From a bacterium (GTDB lineage: Bacteria > BMS3Abin14), in NCBI GenBank assembly GCA_020349685.1, contig CP070698.1, positions 1,585,077-1,595,750 on the forward strand: DNA of 10,674 bases, in the 5' to 3' direction. The position numbers and the translations under genes were made by a program. The notes beneath the pieces are model-generated. The model worked only from the letters and a program-made list of their open reading frames with translations, was not told the DNA's origin and made no database searches. This document shows, piece by piece, positions 1 to 10,674 of this stretch (its first letter is position 1; the number at the start of each line of letters is the position of its first letter).

Positions 1-1026
1 GATCTGTTCCTGGATGCTTTCGGCTCTGGCGGTGAGGGTCTCGATGCGGGCCCGCAGGATCTCCTTCTGAGCGTCGTCCTTCGTTTCGGCCAGCTCTTTT
101 TCAAGGGCTTTTATTCTGGCCCTGGTGTCCGACTCCTGGTCCAGACGTTCTTCTATATTCTCCGCGATGTCGGCCCTGTCGAAGGCGATCTTCTCCAGTT
201 TTGCCGTCTGAGGCGGTTCAGGAGTCACCTGGACCTCGCCGGGGATAAAGATCCTGTCCTGAACCTGGCGTGTGTTCATGAAGGTGGGCGAGACGATCTC
301 CACTCCCCCGTGGTGCAGATGGTCGATGACGGCGGTCTTCAGACTGGATTGGGAGGTCAGGAGTTTGTCCGTGTCCTTGAGCAGGCCACGGACGCAATAG
401 GTCACGGAGAAATCCCCTAATTCCATGATGAGTACGAAGGGGTCCTCGAGACCGATGGAACCCGCTGCCTTGAGCAGGCATTCCTGGATAATCTGGCGGG
501 CCACGTCGTACCCCAGGGAGACCTCCGCCGATATGATGGTCCCTTTAGACCTTATGACCTTGACCGGGTTGGTGGCGATGAAAAGGTTGGGGATGTTGAC
601 GAGATCGCGATTCTGGGTCTGGATCTCCACGTGGAAGAGGCCTCTTCCCGAGACCCGCCCGAAATACTCCTTAACCTCGATAAAATCGCCCCCCCGGAAG
701 CTCTTCTGGGACCTCAGAAGTATACCCGCAAGGGCGTTACCCAGAAAGGTTGTGGAACTCAGGGCGATGGTGGCGCTGAGGATGATACCCAGAAGGGCGA
801 GGATCTGTCCGCGGAGACTTTCGCTGATGGGCAGTGAAATGACGAGTGCGATGGCGCTTGCGAAAGTCAGGAGAGTCATGATGACCTGCCTGGCGACCTG
901 GTGACCCCGCGGGGATTTCATCCTCACGGCCATGATGTGGTTGACCAGGATGAGTGCGCCGACGATCAGGATGAGCGCTGCGCCAAACCCTGCGACAGGT
1001 TTCCATTGAGGCCAGATATTTGCCAT
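1..1026 (-). CDS. mscS: Small-conductance mechanosensitive channel (MscS family), 3' end runs off the window
   Basis: Translated by hand, since it is not in the ORF track (no stop in window). ATG at 1026-1024 has a GGAGGGG SD. Open for 342 codons: MANIWPQWKPVAGFGAALILIVGALILVNH...LLGIILSATIALSSTTFLGNALAGILLRSQKSFRGGDFIEVKEYFGRVSGRGLFHVEIQTQNRDLVNIPN...SLGYD...LGDFSVTY...GVEIVSP. Three N-terminal TM segments, the MscS 'N..AG......F..GD.I.V....G.V' and 'IPN' motifs, and a charged coiled-coil-like tail. Confidence 0.88.
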   Translation of the reverse strand, partial: MANIWPQWKPVAGFGAALILIVGALILVNHIMAVRMKSPRGHQVARQVIMTLLTFASAIALVISLPISESLRGQILALLGIILSATIALSSTTFLGNALAGILLRSQKSFRGGDFIEVKEYFGRVSGRGLFHVEIQTQNRDLVNIPNLFIATNPVKVIRSKGTIISAEVSLGYDVARQIIQECLLKAAGSIGLEDPFVLIMELGDFSVTYCVRGLLKDTDKLLTSQSSLKTAVIDHLHHGGVEIVSPTFMNTRQVQDRIFIPGEVQVTPEPPQTAKLEKIAFDRADIAENIEERLDQESDTRARIKALEKELAETKDDAQKEILRARIETLTARAESIQEQI

Positions 1027-1204
1027 TTCCCCTCCGGTGCGCTTCGGTATCTTTATGACCGACTGCCGAAACTATAATCACTATACCACGGCTTTGCCCG
1101 CAATGATCATAATACAGGATCGGGCGGCTTTTCCGGGAGGGCGAAATCCCCGATCCATACCCTCCCGACCTCGCTCCCGGGCGCAGGGCAGCAGGGTTTT
1201 AACG

Positions 1205-1234
1205 TTGACGCGGTTTACGCCGCTATGGTAAGCA
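1205..1234 (+). promoter_or_regulatory. Possible sigma70-type promoter for the leader/operon
   Basis: TTGACG at 1205-1210, 18-nt spacer, then TAAGCA (1229-1234) preceded by an extended -10 TG at 1226-1227. Lies about 45 nt before the leader ATG. The -10 match is weak. Confidence 0.4.
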
Positions 1235-1262
1235 GGAACCTGAAGTCTGAAATCTGGAATCT
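1235..1262. repeat. Degenerate heptamer tandem repeat (4 units)
   Basis: GGAACCT GAAGTCT GAAATCT GGAATCT. Confidence 0.7.
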
Positions 1263-1277
1263 GGAAAAAGAACTGTA

Positions 1278-1373
1278 ATGACCCTTTTCGCTTCTTTCGA
1301 CACGTTTATTCTTACCAACTGGTCCTGGTGGCCCAGCGATAGAACACCGTGCGAGCCGGGAGGCCAGGGATAG
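1278..1373 (+). CDS. Trp-rich attenuator leader peptide (TrpL-like), 31 aa
   Basis: ATG 1278, TAG 1371-1373; MTLFASFDTFILTNWSWWPSDRTPCEPGGQG. TGG-TCC-TGG-TGG at 1320-1331. Purine-rich GGAAAAAG lies 7 nt upstream (weak SD). Stop codon is about 27 nt before an intrinsic terminator. Confidence 0.8.
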   Translation: MTLFASFDTFILTNWSWWPSDRTPCEPGGQG

Positions 1374-1429
1374 CGTATACCGTAGAACCTTAAGTAAACA
1401 GGCCCCGCCCACCGGCGGGGCTTTTTTTT
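1320..1429 (+). promoter_or_regulatory. Ribosome-dependent transcription attenuator (Trp-sensing)
   Basis: 1:2 hairpin: UCCUGGU 1323-1329 with GCCAGGG 1363-1369, plus CCC 1332-1334 with GGG 1358-1360. 2:3 antiterminator: GG-A-GGCC 1359-1365 with GGCCCC 1401-1406. 3:4 terminator: 1402-1409 with 1414-1421, then U8. Segments 2 and 3 each take part in two mutually exclusive helices. Confidence 0.75.
1400..1429 (+). terminator. Rho-independent terminator (attenuator 3:4 hairpin)
   Basis: GCCCCGCC-CACC-GGCGGGGC (8 GC pairs, 4-nt loop) followed by T8 (1422-1429). The only upstream + strand ORF I can support is the leader peptide. Confidence 0.9.
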
Positions 1430-1469
1430 AAAACAGATCAAGACAGGAGGAGGTGAGAAGAGAGGAGAG

Positions 1470-1504
1470 AGGGAAAAGGGTAAAGGGAAAAGGGAAAAGG
1501 GAAA
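1470..1504. repeat. Heptamer tandem repeat (AGGGAAA)x5
   Basis: AGGGAAA AGGGTAA AGGGAAA AGGGAAA AGGGAAA. Confidence 0.85.
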
Positions 1505-1506
1505 GG

Positions 1507-1663
1507 TTGATGCCTTTCCAAAAATCATCAACGCGCCCCGGTGGGGGCGCCCGGATCAACGACAGACATTATCTGGTCTTTGATCCGTGAGGAAAGGGAA
1601 AATGACACTTTTCCCTTTCCGTGGAGCGAAAAGTCCCACCCGGACTTTTTGCGACCCTATCAA
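1507..1663. repeat. MITE/REP-like palindromic element, about 157 bp
   Basis: Imperfect terminal inverted repeats: TTGATGCCTTTCCAAAAATC (1507-1526) versus the reverse complement of the right end (1643-1663), TTGATAGGGTCGCAAAAAGTC. Internal hairpins at 1533-1550, 1591-1620 (perfect 12 bp) and 1626-1652. Confidence 0.45.
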
Positions 1664-1765
1664 GGGACGGCTAGTACCGAAAGAAAGGCAAGAAACCCGA
1701 TTGTTTTATTGTCTGAGACTTGATAATCAATTCTAACGTCAAAGAGGGTGGGAAAGGAGATGGAA

Positions 1766-2917
1766 ATGAAGAGGAAGGGGAAAATGAAAGTAGTTGCGCT
1801 GGTTGCTGCCGCCGGTTTCCTGCTGCTGGGTCAGGGGATGGCCCATGCCGCCGACACCTTCAAGATCGGGGCCGCCTTCGCCCTCACGGGGCCGGCTGCC
1901 GTCATCGGGGACCCCTCTGCGAAGATCGCCGAGATGCTCCTCGAGGAGATCAACGCCGCCGGCGGCGTCAACGGGAAGAAGATCGAGATGATCACCTACG
2001 ACACCGAATCGGACCCCACCAAGGCGGTCACCGTGATCAAAAGGCTCATCGATAAGGACCAGGTCCTGGCCATCATCGGCCCGACCACCACCGGTTCGGC
2101 CATGGCGTCCCTCAAGTTCGTCCAGGACAGCGAGGTTCCCATGGTGGCGTGCGTGGGCGGTGCGCCGGTGGTGGTTCCCGTGAAGAAGTGGGTTTTCAAG
2201 ACACCGCAGTCCGACACCCTGGCGGTGGAGCGGCTCTACGACTACTTCGTCGAGAAGGGCATCAAGAGGGTGGCCATCCTGACCTCCGCCGGAGGTTTCG
2301 GGGACAGCGGCCGCAGGGGCCTGACGGAACAGGCGGGACCCCTGGCGATCCAGATCGTGGCCGACGAGCGGTACGGGGACCGGGACACGGACATGTCGGC
2401 CCAGCTCACCACCATCAAGGGAAAGGACGCCCAGGCCGTCGTGGTCTGGGGCATCGGGCCTGCGCCGGCCATCATCACCAAGAACGCCAGGCAGCTCGAC
2501 CTCGGGATCCCCATCTTCATGAGCCACGGCGTGGCAGACCCCAAGTTCATCGAACTGGCTGAGGAGGCGGCCGAAGGAGTCATGATGCCTGCCAGCCGCT
2601 TCATCGTCGCGGACAAGCTGGACGACTCCGATTCCCGGAAGGCGTTCCTGATGGACGTGAAAAAGAGGTACGAGGAGAAGTACGGGCCGGTGAGCACCCA
2701 CACCGGGTACGCTTACGATGCCCTCAGGATCATCGAAAGAGCTCTTACCGTCGCCGGCGCTGACAGGGCGAAGATCCGCGACGCTATCGAGAACACCAAA
2801 GGCTACGTGGGGATCAACGGCACCTTCAACATGTCCCCGGAGGATCACAACGGCCTGACCAAGGACTCACTGGTCATGGTGGGTGTCAAGGACGGAGGCT
2901 GGGTGATTGTCCCCTGA
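1766..2917 (+). CDS. ABC transporter substrate-binding protein, LivJ/LivK (HAAT) family; probably binds an aromatic acid
   Basis: Signal peptide MKRKGKMKVVALVAAAGFLLLGQGMAHA|A; motifs KIGA..ALTGPAA..G, INAAGGVNGKKIE..YDT.SDP, IIGP, YAYDA, GINGTFNMSPEDHNGL. ATG 1766 chosen for the AAGGAG SD 6 nt upstream; 1748, 1760 and 1784 are alternative starts. Confidence 0.92.
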   Translation: MKRKGKMKVVALVAAAGFLLLGQGMAHAADTFKIGAAFALTGPAAVIGDPSAKIAEMLLEEINAAGGVNGKKIEMITYDTESDPTKAVTVIKRLIDKDQVLAIIGPTTTGSAMASLKFVQDSEVPMVACVGGAPVVVPVKKWVFKTPQSDTLAVERLYDYFVEKGIKRVAILTSAGGFGDSGRRGLTEQAGPLAIQIVADERYGDRDTDMSAQLTTIKGKDAQAVVVWGIGPAPAIITKNARQLDLGIPIFMSHGVADPKFIELAEEAAEGVMMPASRFIVADKLDDSDSRKAFLMDVKKRYEEKYGPVSTHTGYAYDALRIIERALTVAGADRAKIRDAIENTKGYVGINGTFNMSPEDHNGLTKDSLVMVGVKDGGWVIVP

Positions 2918-4850
2918 CCTTCCTCCGGATAATCCCAAAAGGAGCCCGGGAGGAGGCCATCGCCTCCTCCTGGGCAACGAAGCCATGGCCCAGGGACTTT
3001 ACGAGGCCGGCTGCCGGGTGGCGGCGGCCTACCCCGGGACCCCTTCCACCGAGATCCTCGAGAGTCTGTCGACCTACCAGGCCGGGAACCTTCACCTGGA
3101 GTGGTCGGTCAACGAGAAGATCGCCGTAGAGGTGGCGGCCGCCGCTTCCTGCGCGGGCCTTCGAAGCGCGGCGGTCATGAAGCAGGTGGGGCTCAACGTG
3201 GCCCTCGACCCGCTCATGAGCCTCGCCTACACGGGAGTTGTTGGAGGGATGGTCATCATCGTGGCCGACGACCCGGGCCCCCACAGTTCCCAGACCGAAC
3301 AGGACACGCGCCTCCTGGCCATGGCGGCCGGTGTTCCGGTGCTCGACCCGGTCACGCCCGAGGAGGCCAGGGAAATGGTCCACCAGGCCTACCTCATCTC
3401 TGAAAGATACCAGACCCCTGTGATCCTCCGGCCGGTGCTGAGGATCTGCCACTCGCGGGGCCCGGTTGGGCCGGTCTCGGACAGGTACGAGGGTCCCGGG
3501 CCTGCTTTCGTCAAGGACACCAACCGGTGGGCCGCCACGCCCAGGCACCGCCTCACCCTTCACGGCGAGCTGAATCGCAAGCTGGAAAAGATGCCTTCCG
3601 ATCCCCTGGTCTCGGGGATGAACGGCCTCTGGCGCCCGTCCAAGGGCCAAGGGGAGGCGGCCATCCTGGCCTCGGGAACTTCGGCGGCCTACGCCATGGA
3701 TCTCATTGCGGAGAGGGGAATGGACGAGGAAATGCCCCTGTTCGTGGTCCGTTGTCCCTGGCCCCTGGGCGAGGAAGGGGTCGTCGAAACCCTCGGTGGC
3801 TTCAAGAGGATCCTCGTCCTCGAGGAGACAGGACCTTTCCTGGAGATACTGCTGCGGCACCGGCTGAATGTGTCCGGCCGCACCGACGGTCTCGTTCCTT
3901 CCGAAGGGGAGGTGACGCCGGATGTTGTTTCGGAAGCGATGGACGCGTTCTTTGGAATCTCAAATCTCAGATCTCAAATCTCAAAGTCCGGTGAGGGTGA
4001 GCGGGAGAGGCTTCTCTCTGATCCGGGATCCGGGATCGGAAATCCTTTATCCGAGGAGCCAGGAGCCGCTGCCGGCGCCAAACCCAGTCCGCCGACCCTG
4101 TGCGCCGGGTGCCCGCACCGGTCATCCTTCTGGGCTCTCAAGAAGACCATGCCCGGAGCGATCTACACCGGGGACATCGGGTGCTACACCCTGGGCATCG
4201 AACTGGGGGCGGTGGACACGGTCCTGTGCATGGGGGCCTCCATCTCCCAGGCCGCCGGGTTCTACTGGGCTTACCGTCAGTCCGAGGGCCCTGCCCAGCC
4301 CATCGCCGGCGTCATCGGCGATTCCACCTTCTACCACGCCGGGGTTCCAGCGCTCATCAACGCGGTCCAGCAGGGGGCGGCGTTCGTCCTCGTGATCGTG
4401 GACAACGGCACCACCGCCATGACCGGCTGCCAGCCCACCCCGGGGACCGGCGAGCTTCTTTCCGGCAAGGAAGGAAGGGACGTCCCCCTGGAGGAGGTGG
4501 TGAGGGGGTGCGGCGTAAAGAAGCTCTGGATCGTTGATGCCCTGGATTTCGATGCTTTGAGCAACTCCATCTCCACAGCGGCGGCAGCTGCTGCGGAGGG
4601 GGAGATGGCGGTGGTGATCAGCCGTTCCCCCTGCGTCCTGAACATCACCGAGCGGCAGGGGGCCGTTCCCGCAGTGGACCTTGAAATATGCACCGCCTGC
4701 GGTGTTTGCACGGACCGTTTCGGCTGCCCGGCCCTCGTCATGGAGGAAGACGGCGTCCATATCATCGCCGACCTCTGCCCGGGGTGCGGCATCTGCATCG
4801 AAGTTTGTCCCACCGGGGCCATCGCTGCCCCGGGAGGTAGAAAAGGATGA
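2907..4850 (+). CDS. iorA: Indolepyruvate:ferredoxin oxidoreductase alpha subunit
   Basis: LLGNEA, YPGTPSTE, WSVNEK, KQVGLNVA.D, DDPGPHSSQTEQD, LCAGCPHR, GDIGCY, TPP-binding GDSTFYHAG...DNGTTAMTG, and C-terminal ferredoxin motifs CTACGVC..CP and CPGCGICIEVCP. TTG start with GGAGG (2894-2898) 8 nt upstream, overlapping the SBP gene by 11 nt. Confidence 0.95.
   Translation: MSPDLPPDNPKRSPGGGHRLLLGNEAMAQGLYEAGCRVAAAYPGTPSTEILESLSTYQAGNLHLEWSVNEKIAVEVAAAASCAGLRSAAVMKQVGLNVALDPLMSLAYTGVVGGMVIIVADDPGPHSSQTEQDTRLLAMAAGVPVLDPVTPEEAREMVHQAYLISERYQTPVILRPVLRICHSRGPVGPVSDRYEGPGPAFVKDTNRWAATPRHRLTLHGELNRKLEKMPSDPLVSGMNGLWRPSKGQGEAAILASGTSAAYAMDLIAERGMDEEMPLFVVRCPWPLGEEGVVETLGGFKRILVLEETGPFLEILLRHRLNVSGRTDGLVPSEGEVTPDVVSEAMDAFFGISNLRSQISKSGEGERERLLSDPGSGIGNPLSEEPGAAAGAKPSPPTLCAGCPHRSSFWALKKTMPGAIYTGDIGCYTLGIELGAVDTVLCMGASISQAAGFYWAYRQSEGPAQPIAGVIGDSTFYHAGVPALINAVQQGAAFVLVIVDNGTTAMTGCQPTPGTGELLSGKEGRDVPLEEVVRGCGVKKLWIVDALDFDALSNSISTAAAAAAEGEMAVVISRSPCVLNITERQGAVPAVDLEICTACGVCTDRFGCPALVMEEDGVHIIADLCPGCGICIEVCPTGAIAAPGGRKG
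3954..4053. repeat. Two nnATCnn heptamer arrays inside iorA
   Basis: GGAATCT CAAATCT CAGATCT CAAATCT (CAAAGTC) at 3954-3988; TGATCCG GGATCCG GGATCGG AAATCCT TTATCCG at 4019-4053. Confidence 0.75.
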
Positions 4851-5395
4851 AAGCCGTTTCCTCCTACGATATCGTTCTGGCGGGGCGGGGCGGGCAGGGG
4901 GTGATCTACCTCTCGAGGATCATGGGTCAGGCCGCCCTCCTTCAGGGTCTTAGGATCAGGACCACCGAGACCCACGGGATGGCCATGCGGGGCGGCTCGG
5001 TCCAGTGCTTCGTCCGCGTCGGGGAGGTGCACGGACCTCTTTTCAGGAAAGGCTCCGCCGCTCTTGTCATGGCCCTTCATCCCGGCGAAACGTCCCTCGC
5101 CCTGCCTCACCTCCGGGAGGACGGGACGGTCCTCATTAGCGGCGGAGAAGGGGAAAAAACAGGGATCAGCCTGGCTGGCTCTCAAAAACTCCTTGCCCTC
5201 GACGCAGACGCCATCGCCGTGGAGCAGGGAAACCCCCGGTCGGCCAACCTGGCCCTGCTGGGGGGCGCCGTCGGGAGTGTGAAGGGTTTTCCCCTCGAGG
5301 CCTGGTCCATCGAGGCGGCCATCGCCGGAATGGGACCGGCAGGAACTGTGGAGAGGAACCTGGAGATCTTCCGCAAAGGTTTAAATAGTTTCTAG
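4847..5395 (+). CDS. iorB: Indolepyruvate:ferredoxin oxidoreductase beta subunit (POR gamma-like)
   Basis: IVLAGRGGQGV, ETHGMAMRGGSV...VR.G, GNPRSAN.ALLG, N..IF..G; ATGA overlap with the iorA stop. Confidence 0.93.
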   Translation: MKAVSSYDIVLAGRGGQGVIYLSRIMGQAALLQGLRIRTTETHGMAMRGGSVQCFVRVGEVHGPLFRKGSAALVMALHPGETSLALPHLREDGTVLISGGEGEKTGISLAGSQKLLALDADAIAVEQGNPRSANLALLGGAVGSVKGFPLEAWSIEAAIAGMGPAGTVERNLEIFRKGLNSF

Positions 5396-5430
5396 TTCTA
5401 GCTAGAACCAGACACCAGAACCAGACACTG
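5390..5430. repeat. Short CTAGAA/CCAGACA repeat cluster with palindromic centre
   Basis: TCTAGT TCTAG|CTAGAA CCAGACA CCAGAA CCAGACA CTG; same units as the 6756-6881 array; overlaps the iorB TAG. Confidence 0.75.
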
Positions 5431-5444
5431 AATTGGGAGTCCAC

Positions 5445-6713
5445 ATGTATCAACCCGAAATAGAGGCCATGGACCGGGAACAGCTTGTTTCCCAGCAGCT
5501 GGAAAGCCTGCGCCGGACTTTAGCCCGGATCCAGGAACGGAACCCTGATTATCACCGGAGGCTCGGGTCGGTTCAGCCGGGGGACGTGAGTTCCCTTGAG
5601 AACCTCGCCGGTCTGCCTTTCATGGACAAGGACGATCTGCGGGAAGCCTATCCTTTCAAGCTGACCTGCGCCCCCAAAGAGGATTTCGTCCGTTTTCACA
5701 TGAGCTCGGGGACCACGGGGACGCCTATTTTGAATCCCTATACGAAGGCGGACGTGGATCAATGGGGAGAGATCATGGCCAGGTGCTACGCCGCCGCGGG
5801 CGTGGGGGCGGAAGATGTGGTCCAGATCACCCCCTCCTTCGGTCTTTTCAACGGCGGCTTCGGGTTCCATTACGGAGCCACCCGCCTGGGCTCCTTCATC
5901 GTTCCCATCGGCGCCGGCAGAAGCACCCTGCAGCTCCAGTTCATCGAGGACCTGGGAACGACCTGCCTGACCGCCATCGCCTCCTACCCCCTGCGCCTCA
6001 TCGAGGTTGCCCGGGAGGAGGGGTTCGACTGGAGGTCGACCAACCTGAGGGTGGGGATCTTCGGCGCCGAGGTGTGGAGCGACGAGATGAGGGGCCGCAT
6101 CGAGGAGGAGATGGGGATCACCACCTACGACATCATCGGCATGACGGAGACCGGCGGCGTGGGGATGGGCATCGACTGTGAGGACCGGTCGGGCATCCAC
6201 GTGTGGGAGGACCATTACCTTGTGGAGATCGTGGACCCTGTTACAGGTAGGACCCTGCCCGACGGGGAGAGGGGAGAGATGGTGGTGAGCACCCTGACCC
6301 GCGAGGGGCTGCCCCTCATCCGTTTCCGGACCCGGGACATCACGTCCGTCCTGTCCCGGGACCGATGCGGCTGCGGCAGGACGCACCTGCGCATCGCCCG
6401 CATCACGGGACGCAACGACGACATGATCAAGGTCAAGGGGATCAACTTCTACCCGCAGCAGATCGAGTCGCTGCTTTTAAGGGAGCCCGGAGTGGGGAAC
6501 GACTATCTCCTTACCATCGACCGCGTCGCCGGGGCCGACCGGCTGGAGATAAAAGTGGAGGTGCAAAACCCCGGGGACGACACCCTGGCCGGACGGCTCG
6601 CCCGGATCTTGAGGGATTTCCTGGCGTTTAACGCCGATCTCGAGCTGGTGCCCCTGGGGAGCATCGAGAGGCCCCCGGGCAAGGCGGTCAGGGTGGTGGA
6701 CAGGAGGAAATAA
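5445..6713 (+). CDS. paaK: Phenylacetate-CoA ligase family (PaaK-like) arylacetate-CoA ligase
   Basis: LPFMDKDDLR..YPF, HMSSGTTGTP P-loop, GIFGAEVWS, DIIGMTE, HVWEDHY.VEIVDP, PLIRFRTRDI, GRNDDMIKVKGINFYP, GKAVRVVDRR. ATG 5445 has a GGGAG SD 5 nt upstream and is preferred over TTG 5433. Substrate is uncertain. Confidence 0.93.
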   Translation: MYQPEIEAMDREQLVSQQLESLRRTLARIQERNPDYHRRLGSVQPGDVSSLENLAGLPFMDKDDLREAYPFKLTCAPKEDFVRFHMSSGTTGTPILNPYTKADVDQWGEIMARCYAAAGVGAEDVVQITPSFGLFNGGFGFHYGATRLGSFIVPIGAGRSTLQLQFIEDLGTTCLTAIASYPLRLIEVAREEGFDWRSTNLRVGIFGAEVWSDEMRGRIEEEMGITTYDIIGMTETGGVGMGIDCEDRSGIHVWEDHYLVEIVDPVTGRTLPDGERGEMVVSTLTREGLPLIRFRTRDITSVLSRDRCGCGRTHLRIARITGRNDDMIKVKGINFYPQQIESLLLREPGVGNDYLLTIDRVAGADRLEIKVEVQNPGDDTLAGRLARILRDFLAFNADLELVPLGSIERPPGKAVRVVDRRK

Positions 6714-6730
6714 AGGAAAAGAAGGTTCTA

Positions 6731-6756
6731 GAATCCAGAGTCTGGAGTCTGGATTC
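6731..6756. terminator. Hairpin between convergent genes; possible bidirectional terminator or pause site
   Basis: GAATCCAGA (6731-6739) / TCTGGATTC (6748-6756), built from inverted repeat units. No U-tract follows on the + strand. Confidence 0.35.
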
Positions 6757-6881
6757 CAGACACCAGACACCAGACACTAGAACTAGACACTAGAACCAGA
6801 CACTAGAACCAGACACTAGAACCAGACACCAGACACTAGAACCAGACACCAGACACTAGAACCAGACACTAGAACTAGACA
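6756..6881. repeat. 126-bp mixed heptamer/hexamer tandem array
   Basis: 19 contiguous units: 12 x C(C/T)AGACA and 7 x CTAGAA. The last unit supplies the TAG stop of the permease gene. Confidence 0.95.
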
Positions 6882-9211
6882 CTGTTTTCTTCCTCTTCTG
6901 TCTCCTTTTCCAGCACCTCTTCTCCTTCTGAGGTTTCCTCCCCCGTCTCCGTACCTTCCCCCTCCGGCACCCCCGGAACATCCTCCACCACGCGGTCGAT
7001 GTCGATCTCCCGAAGGGTGTTGACGAAGAGGATGCTGCCCAGTTCGTCGTACCCCTCGAAGATGCCGGCCCCTTCGTGCCGCAGCAGCTCCCCCCGGAAA
7101 CCGATGAGGACAAGGTCCGCGTCCCTCGATAGCTCGTTGATCCTGGCCCGGCCGTCTGCCCCGTGGGGGAGGGGAACGGTCTCGATGTTCCTGGTGGAGA
7201 TGGGGAGGCGCCCCTCCCGCACCATTTTGAGAAGCTCCTCCTTGCTCTCCTCCACCACCTCCTCCGGGAACATGGTGAAGATCCTGATGATTCCCCCCAT
7301 CCACTCGGGATGTCCCAGGATGATGTATCCGAGGAGGATCATGAGGTTGACGTTCTCGTAGTCGGCCGGCGTGATCCAGATGTGGATCTCGCCGTGGTAG
7401 CCGAAGCCCCTCTCGCTGGAAGCTAAAATGCACACGTCGAAGTCCGCCGCGACCGCCAGGCGGTAGTTCTCGATGATCTGTTCCACTTCCTCGGTTTCTC
7501 CCTTGGCGAACTCGAAGAGCACCAGGTTGTTCTCCTTGCCCGAGATGCTCGGCAGCTGCACGAGCTGGGATACAGCCGCGCCGTAAGATGGGCTGATGAC
7601 GGTGTCCACGTAGACGTTGCTCTCGCTGGCGCCCGCAAGGTGCAGGAGGCGCTGGAGGACGTCCCGGGACTCCTCGTTGGCTGCTCTCGAGAAATGCCCC
7701 TCGATGAAGTGGATGTAGGTGCCGAATCCATACCGGTGGGAGATCCAGCGCATGAGCTCGAAGGCCGAGAGGCGTTTGAAGGAATCCTTGGATATACACA
7801 CCACGGAGGGCCGCCATGTGGCCTCGGCCGACCTGTGGGCCTTCTGCAGGAAAACGTGCAGCTTGCGGCTCACCTGGAAGATGGCGCCCTGGAAGAGACT
7901 GGCAAGGCCCCTCTTCTCGGGGTGGATGCGGGCCACCGCCACATAGATGCTCACCATGAAGAGGATGGACAGGGAGGCGTAGGCGGGGCTCATCTCGAAC
8001 ATGAACCACACGCACGCCAGGGCCCCCACGAGGGAGATGTACCAGCGGGACCGGAAGGAGGGCCGGTAGGAGGGGTCGGCCGCAAAGTGCTCGAGGGTGG
8101 AGATGAGACAGATGGTTCCGTAGGTTACCATGAAGATCATGGAGATGATCCGGGCCACGAAATCCACGTCCCCTATTGTGACGAAGAAGAGGGCGATGGC
8201 CACGGTGACGAGGGTACCGTTGAAGGGCTCCCCTGTGTCCCCGCGTCCGAAGGACACCCACTTGTTGAACCGCGCGCCGGGGAAGATCCCGTCGTGACCC
8301 AGGGCCTGCAGGGTGCGGGGTCCTACCAGGATGGAGCCCAGCGCCGAGGAGAAGGTGGCGCACCCCAGCCCGATGGGGATGATGGGTCCCCACAGGGCGA
8401 TGCGGCTCATGATGAGCTGATCCGCGGCAAGGTCCGCAGGGCTCGCCGACACAGAGAGTTTCCAGGCGATGGCGAGGTAGACGACCATGCCCACGAGGGC
8501 CGCGGAGAGGGTTCCCAGCGGTATGGATCTCCTGGGCCGTTTCAGGTCGCCCGAAAGCCCCACACCGGCGGTGACGCCGGTAAAGGCCGGGAATATGATG
8601 GCGAACACCAGGAAGAAGGTGTCGGGCGAGGAGACATGTCCGGTCCACAGGTCCGCCGTCCCGGCAGGAGCGTACCCCGTGCTCCCCACGAAAAAGAGGA
8701 CCAGAGACACGAAAAGGGTGCCCACGACGAGGTAGAGGACGCGGACCCCCAGGTTGGCCCCCTTCGCCAGGACCAGGGCTCCAAGGATGAGGACACCGGG
8801 GATGCTGACCAGCCTCGGGTCGTTCAGGGCGTACCCGTAAACCTCGTTGAGGTAGGCGTAGACCGGACGGAAAGCCTCCGCGAAGGCGATGCTGTAAAAG
8901 GCGACGCTCACAGCCTCCGAAAAATAGAGGGCGACACCGATGGCCGCTCCCACGGTGATGCCGAAGGAGCGGGAGATGATGTAATAGGAACCGCCTCCTT
9001 CCACCTTCTGGTTGGTGGCGATCTCCGCGATGGCCATGGCAGTGGGGATGGTGACGATGTGCCCGAGAAGGATGATGACGAAGGTGCCCAGCAGCCCCAC
9101 GTGGGCCACGGAATACCCGAAGCGCAGGAACATGATGGCGCCGAGGATCGTGGAGATGGCGGTCATGAAGACAGGCGCCGTGCCGAGGCTTTTCCTTCTG
9201 GGTTTTTCCAT
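6875..9211 (-). CDS. APC-superfamily permease, prokaryotic cation-chloride cotransporter (SLC12/CCC)-like, 778 aa
   Basis: About 12 TM segments with CCC motifs ILGAIMFLR, AIATN..V.GGGSYYIISRSFG..VG.AIG, FPAFTG..AG..LSGDLK.P.RSIP.GTL, PRTLQAL..D, PSYRPSFR, and a cytoplasmic C-terminal domain starting WRP. GGGGAG SD upstream of ATG 9211. Acidic tail. Confidence 0.9.
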   Translation of the reverse strand: MEKPRRKSLGTAPVFMTAISTILGAIMFLRFGYSVAHVGLLGTFVIILLGHIVTIPTAMAIAEIATNQKVEGGGSYYIISRSFGITVGAAIGVALYFSEAVSVAFYSIAFAEAFRPVYAYLNEVYGYALNDPRLVSIPGVLILGALVLAKGANLGVRVLYLVVGTLFVSLVLFFVGSTGYAPAGTADLWTGHVSSPDTFFLVFAIIFPAFTGVTAGVGLSGDLKRPRRSIPLGTLSAALVGMVVYLAIAWKLSVSASPADLAADQLIMSRIALWGPIIPIGLGCATFSSALGSILVGPRTLQALGHDGIFPGARFNKWVSFGRGDTGEPFNGTLVTVAIALFFVTIGDVDFVARIISMIFMVTYGTICLISTLEHFAADPSYRPSFRSRWYISLVGALACVWFMFEMSPAYASLSILFMVSIYVAVARIHPEKRGLASLFQGAIFQVSRKLHVFLQKAHRSAEATWRPSVVCISKDSFKRLSAFELMRWISHRYGFGTYIHFIEGHFSRAANEESRDVLQRLLHLAGASESNVYVDTVISPSYGAAVSQLVQLPSISGKENNLVLFEFAKGETEEVEQIIENYRLAVAADFDVCILASSERGFGYHGEIHIWITPADYENVNLMILLGYIILGHPEWMGGIIRIFTMFPEEVVEESKEELLKMVREGRLPISTRNIETVPLPHGADGRARINELSRDADLVLIGFRGELLRHEGAGIFEGYDELGSILFVNTLREIDIDRVVEDVPGVPEGEGTETGEETSEGEEVLEKETEEEENSV

Positions 9212-9621: not shown

Positions 9622-10674
9622 CTAGCTTTTAAACGCCGCGACCAGCCTTTCCAGCGCATTCTCCAGCATGGACCGGGGACAGGCGAAGTTGAGCCTCATG
9701 TGAAGCTCCCCGCCGGGTCCGAAGGTGCGGCCGTGGTTCAGGGCGAGCCGGGCATCCTCCTGGACGCGGCGCACGATCTCATCCATGGATAAACCCGTTC
9801 CGGAAAAATCCAGCCAGGCCAGATAGGTTCCTTCCAGGGGCATGCTCGTCACACCCGGCATCTCCCTGTCCACGACCTCCATCACCCGGTCGTGGTTCCC
9901 CTTCAGGTAGGTCAGGAGTTCCTTCAGCCACGGCTCGCCGTGGTCGTAGGCCGCGGCCGCTGCCAGGGGACCGAAGCTGTTGGGCATGGTGATGCCGCAC
10001 CGGGCTGCCTGGAGCTTGAAGCGGCGGCTTAACGAACCATCGCCGATGATGACGTTTCCCGTCATGGTCCCGGCCAGGTTGAAGGTCTTGCTGGCGGAGG
10101 TGGTGGTGATGGTCCGGCGGGCGACCTCGGGTCCGAGGGAGGCCAGAACCGTATGGGTGTTCCCCTGGTAAACGAGGTCGTGGTGGATCTCGTCGGAAAC
10201 CATGAGGACACCGCGGGAAAGGCACAATTCGGCCAGCGCCGTCATCTCTTCCCTGTTCCTGACACGACCTCCCGGGTTGTGGGGGCTGCACAGGATGAGC
10301 AGGCGGGTCCGTTCGTCCATCTGCCGGGCGAGGCTGTCCAGGTCCATGATGTACCGTTCACCGGCTTTGGCAAGCCGGTTGTGGACCAGTTCGCAACGGT
10401 TGTTGGTGACGGCACCGAAGAAGGGGTAGTAGACAGGGGATTGGACCACCACCTTGTCGCCCGGCTCGCAGAAAGCCTGGACAATGAGGTTCACGGCGTT
10501 GACGATGCCGTGGGTCGTTGATATCCACTCCGGCTCGACTTTCCAGCCATGCCGGCGCTCCATCCACCGGATTATGGCGTCGTGGTGGAAGGCGGGACTG
10601 CCGAAATAGCCGTGGATGCCGTGGTCGGCGGCGCGCCTGATCGCCTCGTTGACCTGGGGAGGGGGGAGGAACTC
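9622..10674 (-). CDS. MalY/PatB family PLP-dependent enzyme (cystathionine beta-lyase / class I-II aminotransferase fold), 5' end outside the window
   Basis: The frame stays open upstream of ATG 10563 to the window edge (EFLPPPQVNEAIRRAADHGIHGYFG...AIIRWMERRHGW). Motifs PVYYPF, LCSPHNPGGRV, SDEIHHDL, PLP-lysine SASKTFNLAG, EGTYLAWLDF, RLNFACPR. Confidence 0.92.
   Translation of the reverse strand, partial: EFLPPPQVNEAIRRAADHGIHGYFGSPAFHHDAIIRWMERRHGWKVEPEWISTTHGIVNAVNLIVQAFCEPGDKVVVQSPVYYPFFGAVTNNRCELVHNRLAKAGERYIMDLDSLARQMDERTRLLILCSPHNPGGRVRNREEMTALAELCLSRGVLMVSDEIHHDLVYQGNTHTVLASLGPEVARRTITTTSASKTFNLAGTMTGNVIIGDGSLSRRFKLQAARCGITMPNSFGPLAAAAAYDHGEPWLKELLTYLKGNHDRVMEVVDREMPGVTSMPLEGTYLAWLDFSGTGLSMDEIVRRVQEDARLALNHGRTFGPGGELHMRLNFACPRSMLENALERLVAAFKS

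Follow-up and report, generated by a model that had tools for sequence, protein, structure and literature searches.

A tryptophan-codon leader and terminator ahead of an operon with a probable role in making tryptophan from scavenged indole-3-acetate

Gene clusters that combine an indolepyruvate:ferredoxin oxidoreductase (IOR) with a PaaK-like arylacetate-CoA ligase abound in the genomes of anaerobes, where annotation routinely takes them for degradative, acting on amino acids or phenylacetate. One such cluster, iorA-iorB-ligase behind the gene of a solute-binding protein (SBP), lies in the bacterial DNA studied here, a stretch of 10,674 nucleotides (the window) that makes up a complete contig of a metagenome-assembled genome (MAG; GCA_020349685.1, hereafter G000), and raises the question of the direction in which its pathway runs. 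Physiological direction is otherwise hard to read for reversible ferredoxin enzymes and in uncultured organisms, and a leader that senses tryptophan starvation offers sequence-readable evidence on it. The first-pass annotation had placed the four genes behind a tryptophan attenuator and had argued from it for an anabolic role. Our preferred answer, which we hold to be probable, is a ribosome-mediated, trpL-type tryptophan attenuator on a four-gene operon that turns scavenged indole-3-acetate into tryptophan. The assemblies compared are fragmentary MAGs (G000 has 2.03 Mb in total, in 343 pieces linked by 100-N runs, is 81.9% complete and has 57% G+C), and related genomes are non-independent observations.

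The operon and its tryptophan leader

Gene families were assigned by Pfam and NCBIfam profile matches on the window proteins, and both agree with the first-pass annotation on the binding protein, the two IOR subunits and the ligase. The features that concern the operon are the following:

1-1026, minus strand: MscS-like gene, divergent from the operon (Pfam)
1205..1231, plus strand: promoter-like box (TTGAC, 16 nt, TGGTAA), same arrangement in family leaders
1278..1373, plus strand: leader open reading frame (ORF) of 31 codons (by translation), tryptophan cluster kept in relatives
1354..1374, plus strand: G-rich region 2, GCCGGGAGGCCAGGG, an alignment block overlapping the end of the leader ORF
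1400..1431, plus strand: intrinsic terminator, a GC-rich hairpin and eight T, core present in eight family leaders
1432..1759, plus strand: repeat-rich spacer from attenuator to SBP gene, varying in length and sequence among relatives
1766..2917, plus strand: orphan periplasmic SBP, Peripla_BP_6, HAAT type, with signal peptide (Pfam E 3e-60)
2907..4850, plus strand: iorA, alpha subunit of the IOR (TIGR03336, Pfam domains)
4847..5395, plus strand: iorB, beta subunit of the IOR (TIGR03334, POR)
5445..6713, plus strand: PaaK-like arylacetate-CoA ligase (TIGR02155), alternative TTG start at 5433

The SBP ORF spans 1748-2917, with ATG 1766 (or 1760) as its likely start, and a non-coding stretch of ~730 nt separates it from the MscS-like gene. 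The tight coupling claimed for the four genes is correct, given the starts TTG 2907 for iorA and ATG 5445 for the ligase: SBP and iorA overlap by 11 nt, iorA and iorB by 4 nt, and iorB and the ligase are 49 nt apart (37 nt from the upstream TTG 5433).

The leader ORF encodes MTLFASFDTFILTNWSWWPSDRTPCEPGGQG*, with its stop codon at 1371-1373, and carries three tryptophans within four codons (codons 15, 17 and 18, at 1320-1322, 1326-1328 and 1329-1331), ~40 nt ahead of the stop. The terminator stem (1400-1423) begins 26 nt past the leader stop, contains 10 pairs of which 8 are G-C, is followed by eight T and has an energy of about -17.9 to -20.7 kcal/mol. Between the tryptophan codons and this hairpin, over the last leader codons, sits the conserved region 2, GCCGGGAGGCCAGGG, whose duplex with the tryptophan-codon segment (1:2 pairing) reaches -22.0 kcal/mol; this pairing is fairly strong in four leaders of the family (G000, G007, G002 and G011; -22 to -28 kcal/mol, shuffle fraction 0.004-0.12). 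The leader has trpL geometry, in that a ribosome at the stop codon would cover region 2 and a ribosome at the tryptophan codons would expose it. Upstream, a TTGAC-N16-TGGTAA/TGTTA arrangement lies 40-70 nt ahead of the leader ATG in all eight family leaders described below, and the same TTGAC box type precedes the leader of the trp operon in G000; we regard this box as a putative promoter, while a stricter sigma-70 scan of window positions 900-7000 returned no site.

On the mechanism that we propose, when charged tRNA-Trp is plentiful the ribosome would read the leader to its stop codon and cover region 2, the terminator would form and transcription would stop. When tRNA-Trp is scarce, the ribosome would stall at the three tryptophan codons (1320-1331), leaving region 2 free for the 5' arm of the terminator, and RNA polymerase would continue into the operon. 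The orphan SBP would then pass the aryl carboxylate on to an ABC permease of LIV type, whose genes would lie elsewhere, and the ligase would convert indoleacetate to indoleacetyl-CoA. IorAB, running in reverse with reduced ferredoxin and CO2, would turn the latter into indole-3-pyruvate, from which a general aminotransferase would produce L-tryptophan (class I aminotransferase paralogues are present in G000). Indole-3-acetate is a common end product of tryptophan fermentation. Since scarcity of charged tRNA-Trp is what opens such an attenuator, the only sensible product of the operon is tryptophan or a tryptophan-sparing compound, and the anabolic reading is in this respect well supported by the regulation.

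Conservation, the trp operon and parallel systems

The remaining 15 genomes of this GTDB family encode SBP orthologues (72-83% identity), and 10 loci were inspectable. A leader with a tryptophan cluster and a terminator precedes the orthologous operon in eight of these ten (G000, G007, G008, G011, G013, G012, G006 and G002), with the clusters NWSWW, NWCWW, NWSCWW, SWCWW, FWW, FWWW and, twice, SWWW. The attenuator of the first-pass annotation is real as far as the three-tryptophan leader and the terminator go; in the window, the terminator lies ~330 nt upstream of the SBP start and not immediately next to it. A T run behind the core GCCCCGCC-loop-GGCGGGGC marks the terminator of all eight leaders, and purine-rich, Shine-Dalgarno-like motifs precede most of them when their sequences are read. 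What the leaders share is confined to the tryptophan cluster (2-3 tryptophans), the G-rich box and the terminator core, and the leader peptides fall into three types that are mutually unlike outside the cluster, a pattern expected with selection acting on the codons and not on the peptide. Gene order SBP-iorA-iorB-ligase is kept in all seven of the longer family loci.

The region between terminator and SBP bears on another explanation, to our mind the least likely of those weighed here, in which leader and terminator are an independent unit, a small gene or small RNA, and the G000 operon is driven from a promoter in the 330-nt spacer, outside tryptophan control. The spacer is indeed long, repeat-rich and non-conserved: G000, G007, G011, G013 and, in shorter form, G002 have a variable, repeat-filled spacer of up to ~330 nt, the distance from the terminator to a conserved SBP motif ranges from 142 to 432 nt among relatives, and the spacer sequence cannot be aligned. 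Moreover, the complete genome G003 has the four-gene operon without any leader. On the other hand, the SBP of G012, G006 and G008 starts ~45-50 nt past the terminator, which leaves no room for a promoter, the scan of 900-7000 found no sigma-70-like site, and the gene upstream of the leader is divergent, so that the terminator has nothing else to terminate. In G003 the attenuator has been lost or replaced, and its 210-nt upstream region (L096, 1236-1450) contains neither a tryptophan leader nor a terminator. The G004 locus is cut by a contig end, at SBP residue 57, and in the nearest public relatives by IorA, PFL40 (65%) and bin676 (62%), the upstream region is lost to contig ends or an N gap.

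As for the spacer itself, it holds a heptamer array (AGGGAAA x5, 1470-1504) in the window. The spacers of G000 (1432-1759) and G013 (L097) contain palindromes on GGGCGCCC and hairpins of GCAAAAAGTCC...GGACTTTTTGC type, and these inserted elements look like a small dispersed repeat, REP/MITE-like in character.

If the attenuator of the window responds to tryptophan, the trp operon is its natural point of reference. The first-pass annotation had left undecided whether trpEGDCFBA is lacking or retained; the pathway is retained, since trpD exceeds its cut-off in 14 of the 16 family genomes and trpB does so in 15, and the family is not a tryptophan auxotroph. The sole family genome without both genes is G000, the ~82%-complete assembly. 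Because trpD and trpB are kept across the family, the salvage route is an addition to de novo tryptophan synthesis, which it supplements and does not replace. A tryptophan-cluster leader with its own, different terminator stands ahead of seven of the eight family trp loci that were fetched (six WWW, one WRW); in G007 trpEGDCFBA lie behind it in that order. The trp leader of G000 lies at 737767-737850, 137 nt ahead of a trpE that is cut by the contig end. The operon of the window is in this way under the same kind of control as the trp operon. In DNA sequence the two G000 leaders resemble each other no more than expected by chance (score 20; shuffles 16.6 +/- 2.2), and they are not recent copies of one another.

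Two further trp-like loci of G000 may be recorded here. A second, divergent trpC-trpF pair (G000:C1:318392-322357, L011) shares 37% and 33% identity with the operon-type pair in G007. Its neighbours are an archaeal-type riboflavin pyrimidine reductase and a small ORF of Lrp/ACT-like type, and it does not lie on the contig with the trp leader and trpE. A TrpB-like protein of ~457 aa (G000:C1:1356204-1357238, minus strand; 151.7 bits against a trpB cut-off of 392) is found in all 16 family genomes besides canonical trpB and may be of the TrpB2 type; the leader scan of G000 showed no tryptophan leader ahead of its gene.

Genome-wide, the device stands out from chance. Across the 2.03 Mb of G000, a scan for any short ORF that contains WW or WxW and has a strong hairpin and a T-run behind it gave seven candidates, and only two combine three tryptophan codons with a hairpin of -19 kcal/mol or lower: the leader of the window and the leader ahead of trpE. 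The remaining five have two tryptophans each and hairpins of -13.3 to -16.1 kcal/mol. A generic terminator scan alone was not enriched (6 sites against 5.1 +/- 2.2 in shuffles), and a wider scan of G000 for leaders rich in any amino acid produced no further convincing attenuator. As far as the assembly shows, the tryptophan-leader regulon has two members, tryptophan biosynthesis and this operon.

Outside the family, 80 loci were collected on the basis of IorA, mostly from Desulfuromonadales and Desulfobulbales at ~46% identity, and an intergenic tryptophan leader with a terminator occurs at only one other locus among them, in a Smithella MAG. There, a WWWW leader and terminator precede iorA-iorB-dctP-dctQ-dctM, with PaaK-like genes on both sides, and the trp operon of the same MAG also lies behind a WWWW leader. 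The antiterminator is clear in this case (-15.7 kcal/mol against -8.8 +/- 2.3 in shuffles) and is encoded in the last leader codons, and the leader type is kept in four of five orthologous loci of that family. The window IorA is 43% identical to this Smithella IorA, and the window ligase 38-39% identical to the two ligases that flank the Smithella unit, in which a tripartite ATP-independent periplasmic (TRAP) transporter takes the place of the SBP.

Used as the query instead, the TRAP binding protein DctP gave 80 loci, of which 20 have a linked iorA, and in 16 of these 20 an ORF with a tryptophan cluster lies directly ahead of the unit's first gene, in a relaxed scan that does not require a terminator. 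The stricter scan (intergenic position and terminator) flags seven of the 16 (L145, L152, L153, L155, L157, L158 and L187), and also L151, there solely for a leader ahead of the ligase gene. In four Syntrophales loci (L149, L151, L153 and L158) a second tryptophan leader with terminator, of the IVRYD.YWW(W) type, precedes a PaaK-like gene upstream of the iorAB-TRAP unit, which puts two tryptophan attenuators within ~1.5 kb. L155 has divergent ior-ligase and TRAP units with one leader each, and a Desulfobacteraceae MAG (L187) has the order leader-dctPQM-iorA-ligase. The four leaderless iorA-linked loci, of which one is cut, are of Desulfospira/Desulfobacter type. Tryptophan leaders are thus tied to each of the three parts, transporter, IOR and ligase, across three or more lineages and in combination with two transporter classes that are unrelated to each other.

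These arrangements bear on a reading in which the transporter brings in indole-3-pyruvate, or another indole acid for which carboxylation is unnecessary, for direct transamination, and in which IOR and ligase have a side function such as CoA-ester balance. A close solved relative of the window SBP, 4DQD, does bind 3-phenylpyruvate, and the structures of the TRAP binder discussed in the next section reportedly include an indolepyruvate complex. Yet the IOR is co-transcribed with the SBP and, working oxidatively, would destroy the imported tryptophan precursor; and since the ligase or IOR unit has its own tryptophan leader in L155 and the four Syntrophales loci, each part appears to be needed under tryptophan starvation. 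We consider indolepyruvate import very improbable.

Substrate, direction and known systems

The sequences and structures of the operon proteins give partial clues to the substrate. IorA (POR_N, TPP_enzyme_C and a C-terminal 2x[4Fe-4S] domain) scores 604.9 bits with TIGR03336 against an equivalog cut-off of 650.9; the IorB encoded by the adjoining gene (POR domain) scores 128.1 bits with TIGR03334 against 205.8; and the ligase (AMP-binding and AMP-binding_C_2) scores 383.8 bits with TIGR02155 against 646.3, its nearest solved relatives being the phenylacetate-CoA ligases 4R1L (E 6e-113) and 2Y27 (E 2e-100). The best solved relatives of the SBP (AlphaFold 2 model, pLDDT 83.7) bind p-coumarate, caffeate and 3-phenylpyruvate (E 5e-40 to 5e-36, Z 41.5-42.5), and by sequence the SBP is closer to these aromatic-acid binders than to LivJ 4GNR (1e-32) or the LIV-BP of E. 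coli (1e-16). The SBP is an orphan, and a 49%-identical paralogue elsewhere in G000 belongs to an ACT-SBP-livH-livM-livG cluster, which could supply its permease.

Two side observations concern these proteins. Heptamer repeats in iorA (AATCTCA x4.3, GATCCGG x2.6; 3956-4037) correspond to a low-complexity insertion of ~29 residues (residues ~367-395) that is absent from Smithella IorA. A protein with a pair of ACT domains is encoded directly ahead of the paralogous SBP-livH-livM-livG genes (G000:C1:593613-598141; L225 3082-7610), and ACT proteins whose genes neighbour those of LIV-type or PaaK-like proteins may serve to sense amino acids.

Organic acids are the cargo of TRAP systems, and the Smithella DctP offers a further clue. 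It matches the solved structures 4N6D, 4PGN/4PGP and 4NAP (E 4e-110 to 2e-101; about 1e-101 for 4PGN/4PGP/4NAP over residues 31-322); its single-sequence AlphaFold 2 model (pLDDT 35.9) is unusable. We take 4PGN, 4PGP and 4NAP to be structures of the Oleidesulfovibrio alaskensis protein Dde_0634, in complex with indolepyruvate, indole-3-acetate and D-tryptophan. Binding of indole-3-acetate by Dde_0634 is reported in PMC9973260 and PMC9543091, and PMC10443332 describes 4NAP as holding a D-amino acid and the DctP family as including an indoleacetate binder. In the window, the place of such a TRAP binder is taken by a Peripla_BP_6 protein of ABC type.

Several results weigh against an indoleacetate-to-tryptophan switch. 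First, the antiterminator (2:3 pairing) lacks statistical support in the family of the window in targeted duplex tests against shuffles: it can be drawn in all eight leaders, with energies between -12.1 and -7.4 kcal/mol that are equalled in 9-89% of shuffles. In the window, region 2 and the 5' arm of the terminator give -8.5 kcal/mol, which does not beat shuffles, and shuffling this G+C-rich leader yields sequences that bind the terminator arm to a similar extent. The whole-leader fold has a z-score of -1.07, and the minimum free energy structure always contains the terminator, no better than in shuffles. The Rfam model RF00513 (Trp_leader), which is enterobacterial, matches 1320-1428 with 22.3 bits (E 0.78) against a gathering score of 41; the leader would act like this class and falls outside its sequence family. 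Second, a second promoter could hide in the ~330 nt that separate terminator and SBP gene in G000, and there is the leaderless operon of G003. Third, the organism can make tryptophan de novo, so that the need for salvage is not obvious, and the operon proteins are not poor in tryptophan (0.55-1.08% against a genome mean of 0.85%). Fourth, all three enzymes fall under their equivalog cut-offs, meaning that the families fit and the specificities are uncertified, and the fold of the SBP does not part aromatic-acid binders from LivJ (Z 42.5 against 40.7). Fifth, the lack of an evident catabolic outlet, which itself speaks for the anabolic reading, covers PaaA/PaaC (0 of 16 family genomes) and the HGD-D/benzoyl-CoA-reductase family (1 of 16), class II benzoyl-CoA reductase not having been searched for. 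Finally, the 20 listed sequencing runs that hold the stretch (sediment, estuary and marine sediment metagenomes from eight studies) are all DNA and include no RNA.

The uncertified specificities give room to the main alternative, which shares the switch and the anabolic direction and differs in substrate: the operon would serve aryl acids generally (phenylacetate to phenylalanine, 4-hydroxyphenylacetate to tyrosine, indoleacetate to tryptophan), tryptophan being merely the signal. IOR enzymes and PaaK-like ligases are often broad, the scores of all three enzymes leave such breadth open, the solved relatives of the SBP bind phenyl and not indole acids, and the ligase is nearest to phenylacetate-CoA ligases; the Methanococcus maripaludis pathway, with a single IOR, accepts aryl acids generally according to PMC4162585. 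Nevertheless, all leaders found carry tryptophan clusters, no leader rich in phenylalanine or tyrosine emerged from the G000 scan, and the paralogous ior-paaK operons with such leaders that the first-pass annotation had suggested looking for were not found in G000. A second IOR and two further PaaK paralogues are present in G000, all leaderless, and could serve other aryl acids or other roles. The TRAP binder of the parallel systems is, besides, nearest to a reported indoleacetate binder, if the identification of its solved relatives as Dde_0634 is right. We judge the broader specificity unlikely.

The default annotation, oxidation of aromatic amino acids or arylacetates, would make the operon catabolic, with a leader that is either irrelevant or a tryptophan-inducible arrest peptide like TnaC. 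It takes support from the best family names, indolepyruvate oxidoreductase and phenylacetate-CoA ligase, and from the usually oxidative role of IOR in fermenters, as stated in PMC13290082. The leaders, in contrast, have in common only tryptophan clusters and an intrinsic terminator, around three unlike peptide types, and TnaC-like induction was rejected on the ground that no arrest-peptide motif is conserved among them. The same design governs trpE in the same genomes; the ligase is AMP-forming and consumes ATP, a misfit with energy-yielding oxidation; and ring-degradation genes of the two kinds searched for are lacking, bar the single HGD-D case. A catabolic operon is, in our estimate, highly improbable, and each of the catabolic, indolepyruvate-import and spacer-promoter readings, possible as they are, fits fewer observations than tryptophan-controlled salvage. 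The anabolic argument, which had started from a single attenuator, is strengthened by the family conservation, the leaders of the trp operons, the parallels in Syntrophales and Desulfobacteraceae and the relatives of the transporter.

The separate parts of the proposed system have precedents. Like the trpL-type attenuators (RF00513; trpL of E. coli and of Sinorhizobium), the window has a short ORF with tandem tryptophan codons and an intrinsic terminator just downstream, and a G-rich segment that can pair with the tryptophan-codon region or, putatively, with a terminator arm. Unlike them, it governs an operon for uptake, IOR and CoA ligase and not the trp biosynthetic genes, is followed by a 330-nt spacer and, with respect to RF00513, is without sequence likeness.

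For the chemistry, an aryl-acid route to aromatic amino acids was reportedly described in rumen anaerobes by Allison and Robinson in the 1960s. In M. maripaludis, IOR gives aryl acids entry into the synthesis of aromatic amino acids, as the first-pass annotation had stated and as is borne out by PMC4162585, which cites Porat et al. A ligase joined to a reversible ferredoxin oxidoreductase fits this route (arylacetate, CoA activation, reductive carboxylation by indolepyruvate:ferredoxin oxidoreductase, transamination). The system of the window and its parallels differ in being bacterial, clustered with a dedicated SBP or TRAP transporter, and equipped with a tryptophan-specific attenuator.

Two catabolic systems are also comparable. 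The CouP/RPA1789-type SBPs of Rhodopseudomonas palustris (4F8J, 4JB0 and 4EYQ) are the best matches of the window SBP (E ~1e-38 to 1e-40, Z 42, 28% identity) and serve the catabolism of lignin-derived phenylpropanoids, with LivJ-type proteins nearly as good as fold matches of the window SBP (Z 40.7). In anaerobic indoleacetate degradation, the iaa operon of Aromatoleum/Azoarcus encodes an indoleacetate-CoA ligase and a predicted uptake SBP, IaaM, according to PMC8360864 and PMC9543091; it thus shares with the window a PaaK-like ligase and an SBP predicted for uptake. The iaa pathway proceeds to breakdown via benzylmalonyl-CoA, whereas the window ligase is coupled to an IOR, a tryptophan-starvation switch is proposed, and the operon has no iaa-type downstream genes.

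Tryptophan attenuators and the aryl-acid/IOR route were both known beforehand. For a tryptophan leader on an operon of uptake, IOR and ligase genes, the literature searched (subscription journals and supplements lay outside its scope) gave no prior description, and among the matches listed, judged by titles and the openings of abstracts, no paper links IOR to a tryptophan attenuator or a T-box.

Whether the individual loci belong to one scheme is a wider question. We regard it as evenly balanced that tryptophan attenuators define a tryptophan-salvage regulon of anaerobic sediment and syntrophic bacteria, in which indoleacetate imported through ABC or TRAP binders is carboxylated by IOR on the way to tryptophan when charged tRNA-Trp is low. 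If so, many iorAB-paaK clusters annotated as degradative would be biosynthetic, indoleacetate binders of the Dde_0634 type would serve anabolism, and indoleacetate would be a cross-fed equivalent of tryptophan in anoxic communities; the finding suggests that indoleacetate is cross-fed in sediments, which hold this organism's DNA. Aryl acids as precursors of aromatic amino acids, an idea drawn from methanogens and, reportedly, rumen bacteria, become testable at defined bacterial loci, and indoleacetate-binding transport proteins gain candidate physiological roles. More generally, the codon content of an attenuator provides a means to assign function to neighbouring genes.

Neighbouring genes and repeats

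Downstream of the operon, two convergent genes lie outside it:

6875-9211, minus strand: APC-superfamily protein, cation-chloride-cotransporter-like
9622-10674, minus strand: PatB-family pyridoxal phosphate (PLP) enzyme

The former, of 778 aa, resembles K-Cl cotransporters (TIGR00930, 285 bits, under cut-off), and the latter is a PatB-family C-S lyase/aminotransferase (TIGR04350, 391 bits, above the cut-off of 340). A hairpin at 6727-6760 is a minus-strand terminator for these convergent genes. Tandem repeats of 7 and 13 nt crowd the intergenic regions of the window (1235-1266, 1470-1504, 5404-5428 and 6756-6883), with the units GGAATCT x4.6, AGGGAAA x5 and, downstream of the ligase, CCAGACACTAGAA x9.7, and relatives carry other heptamer arrays at the same intergenic places. 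The whole-window Rfam scan (E <=1) gave matches below threshold only, and the best of them, MIR6450 at 6736-6838, was rejected as a tandem-repeat artefact. As to the organism, ribosomal protein S3 of G000 is nearest to Desulfuromonadales (73%), which is a single-marker hint.

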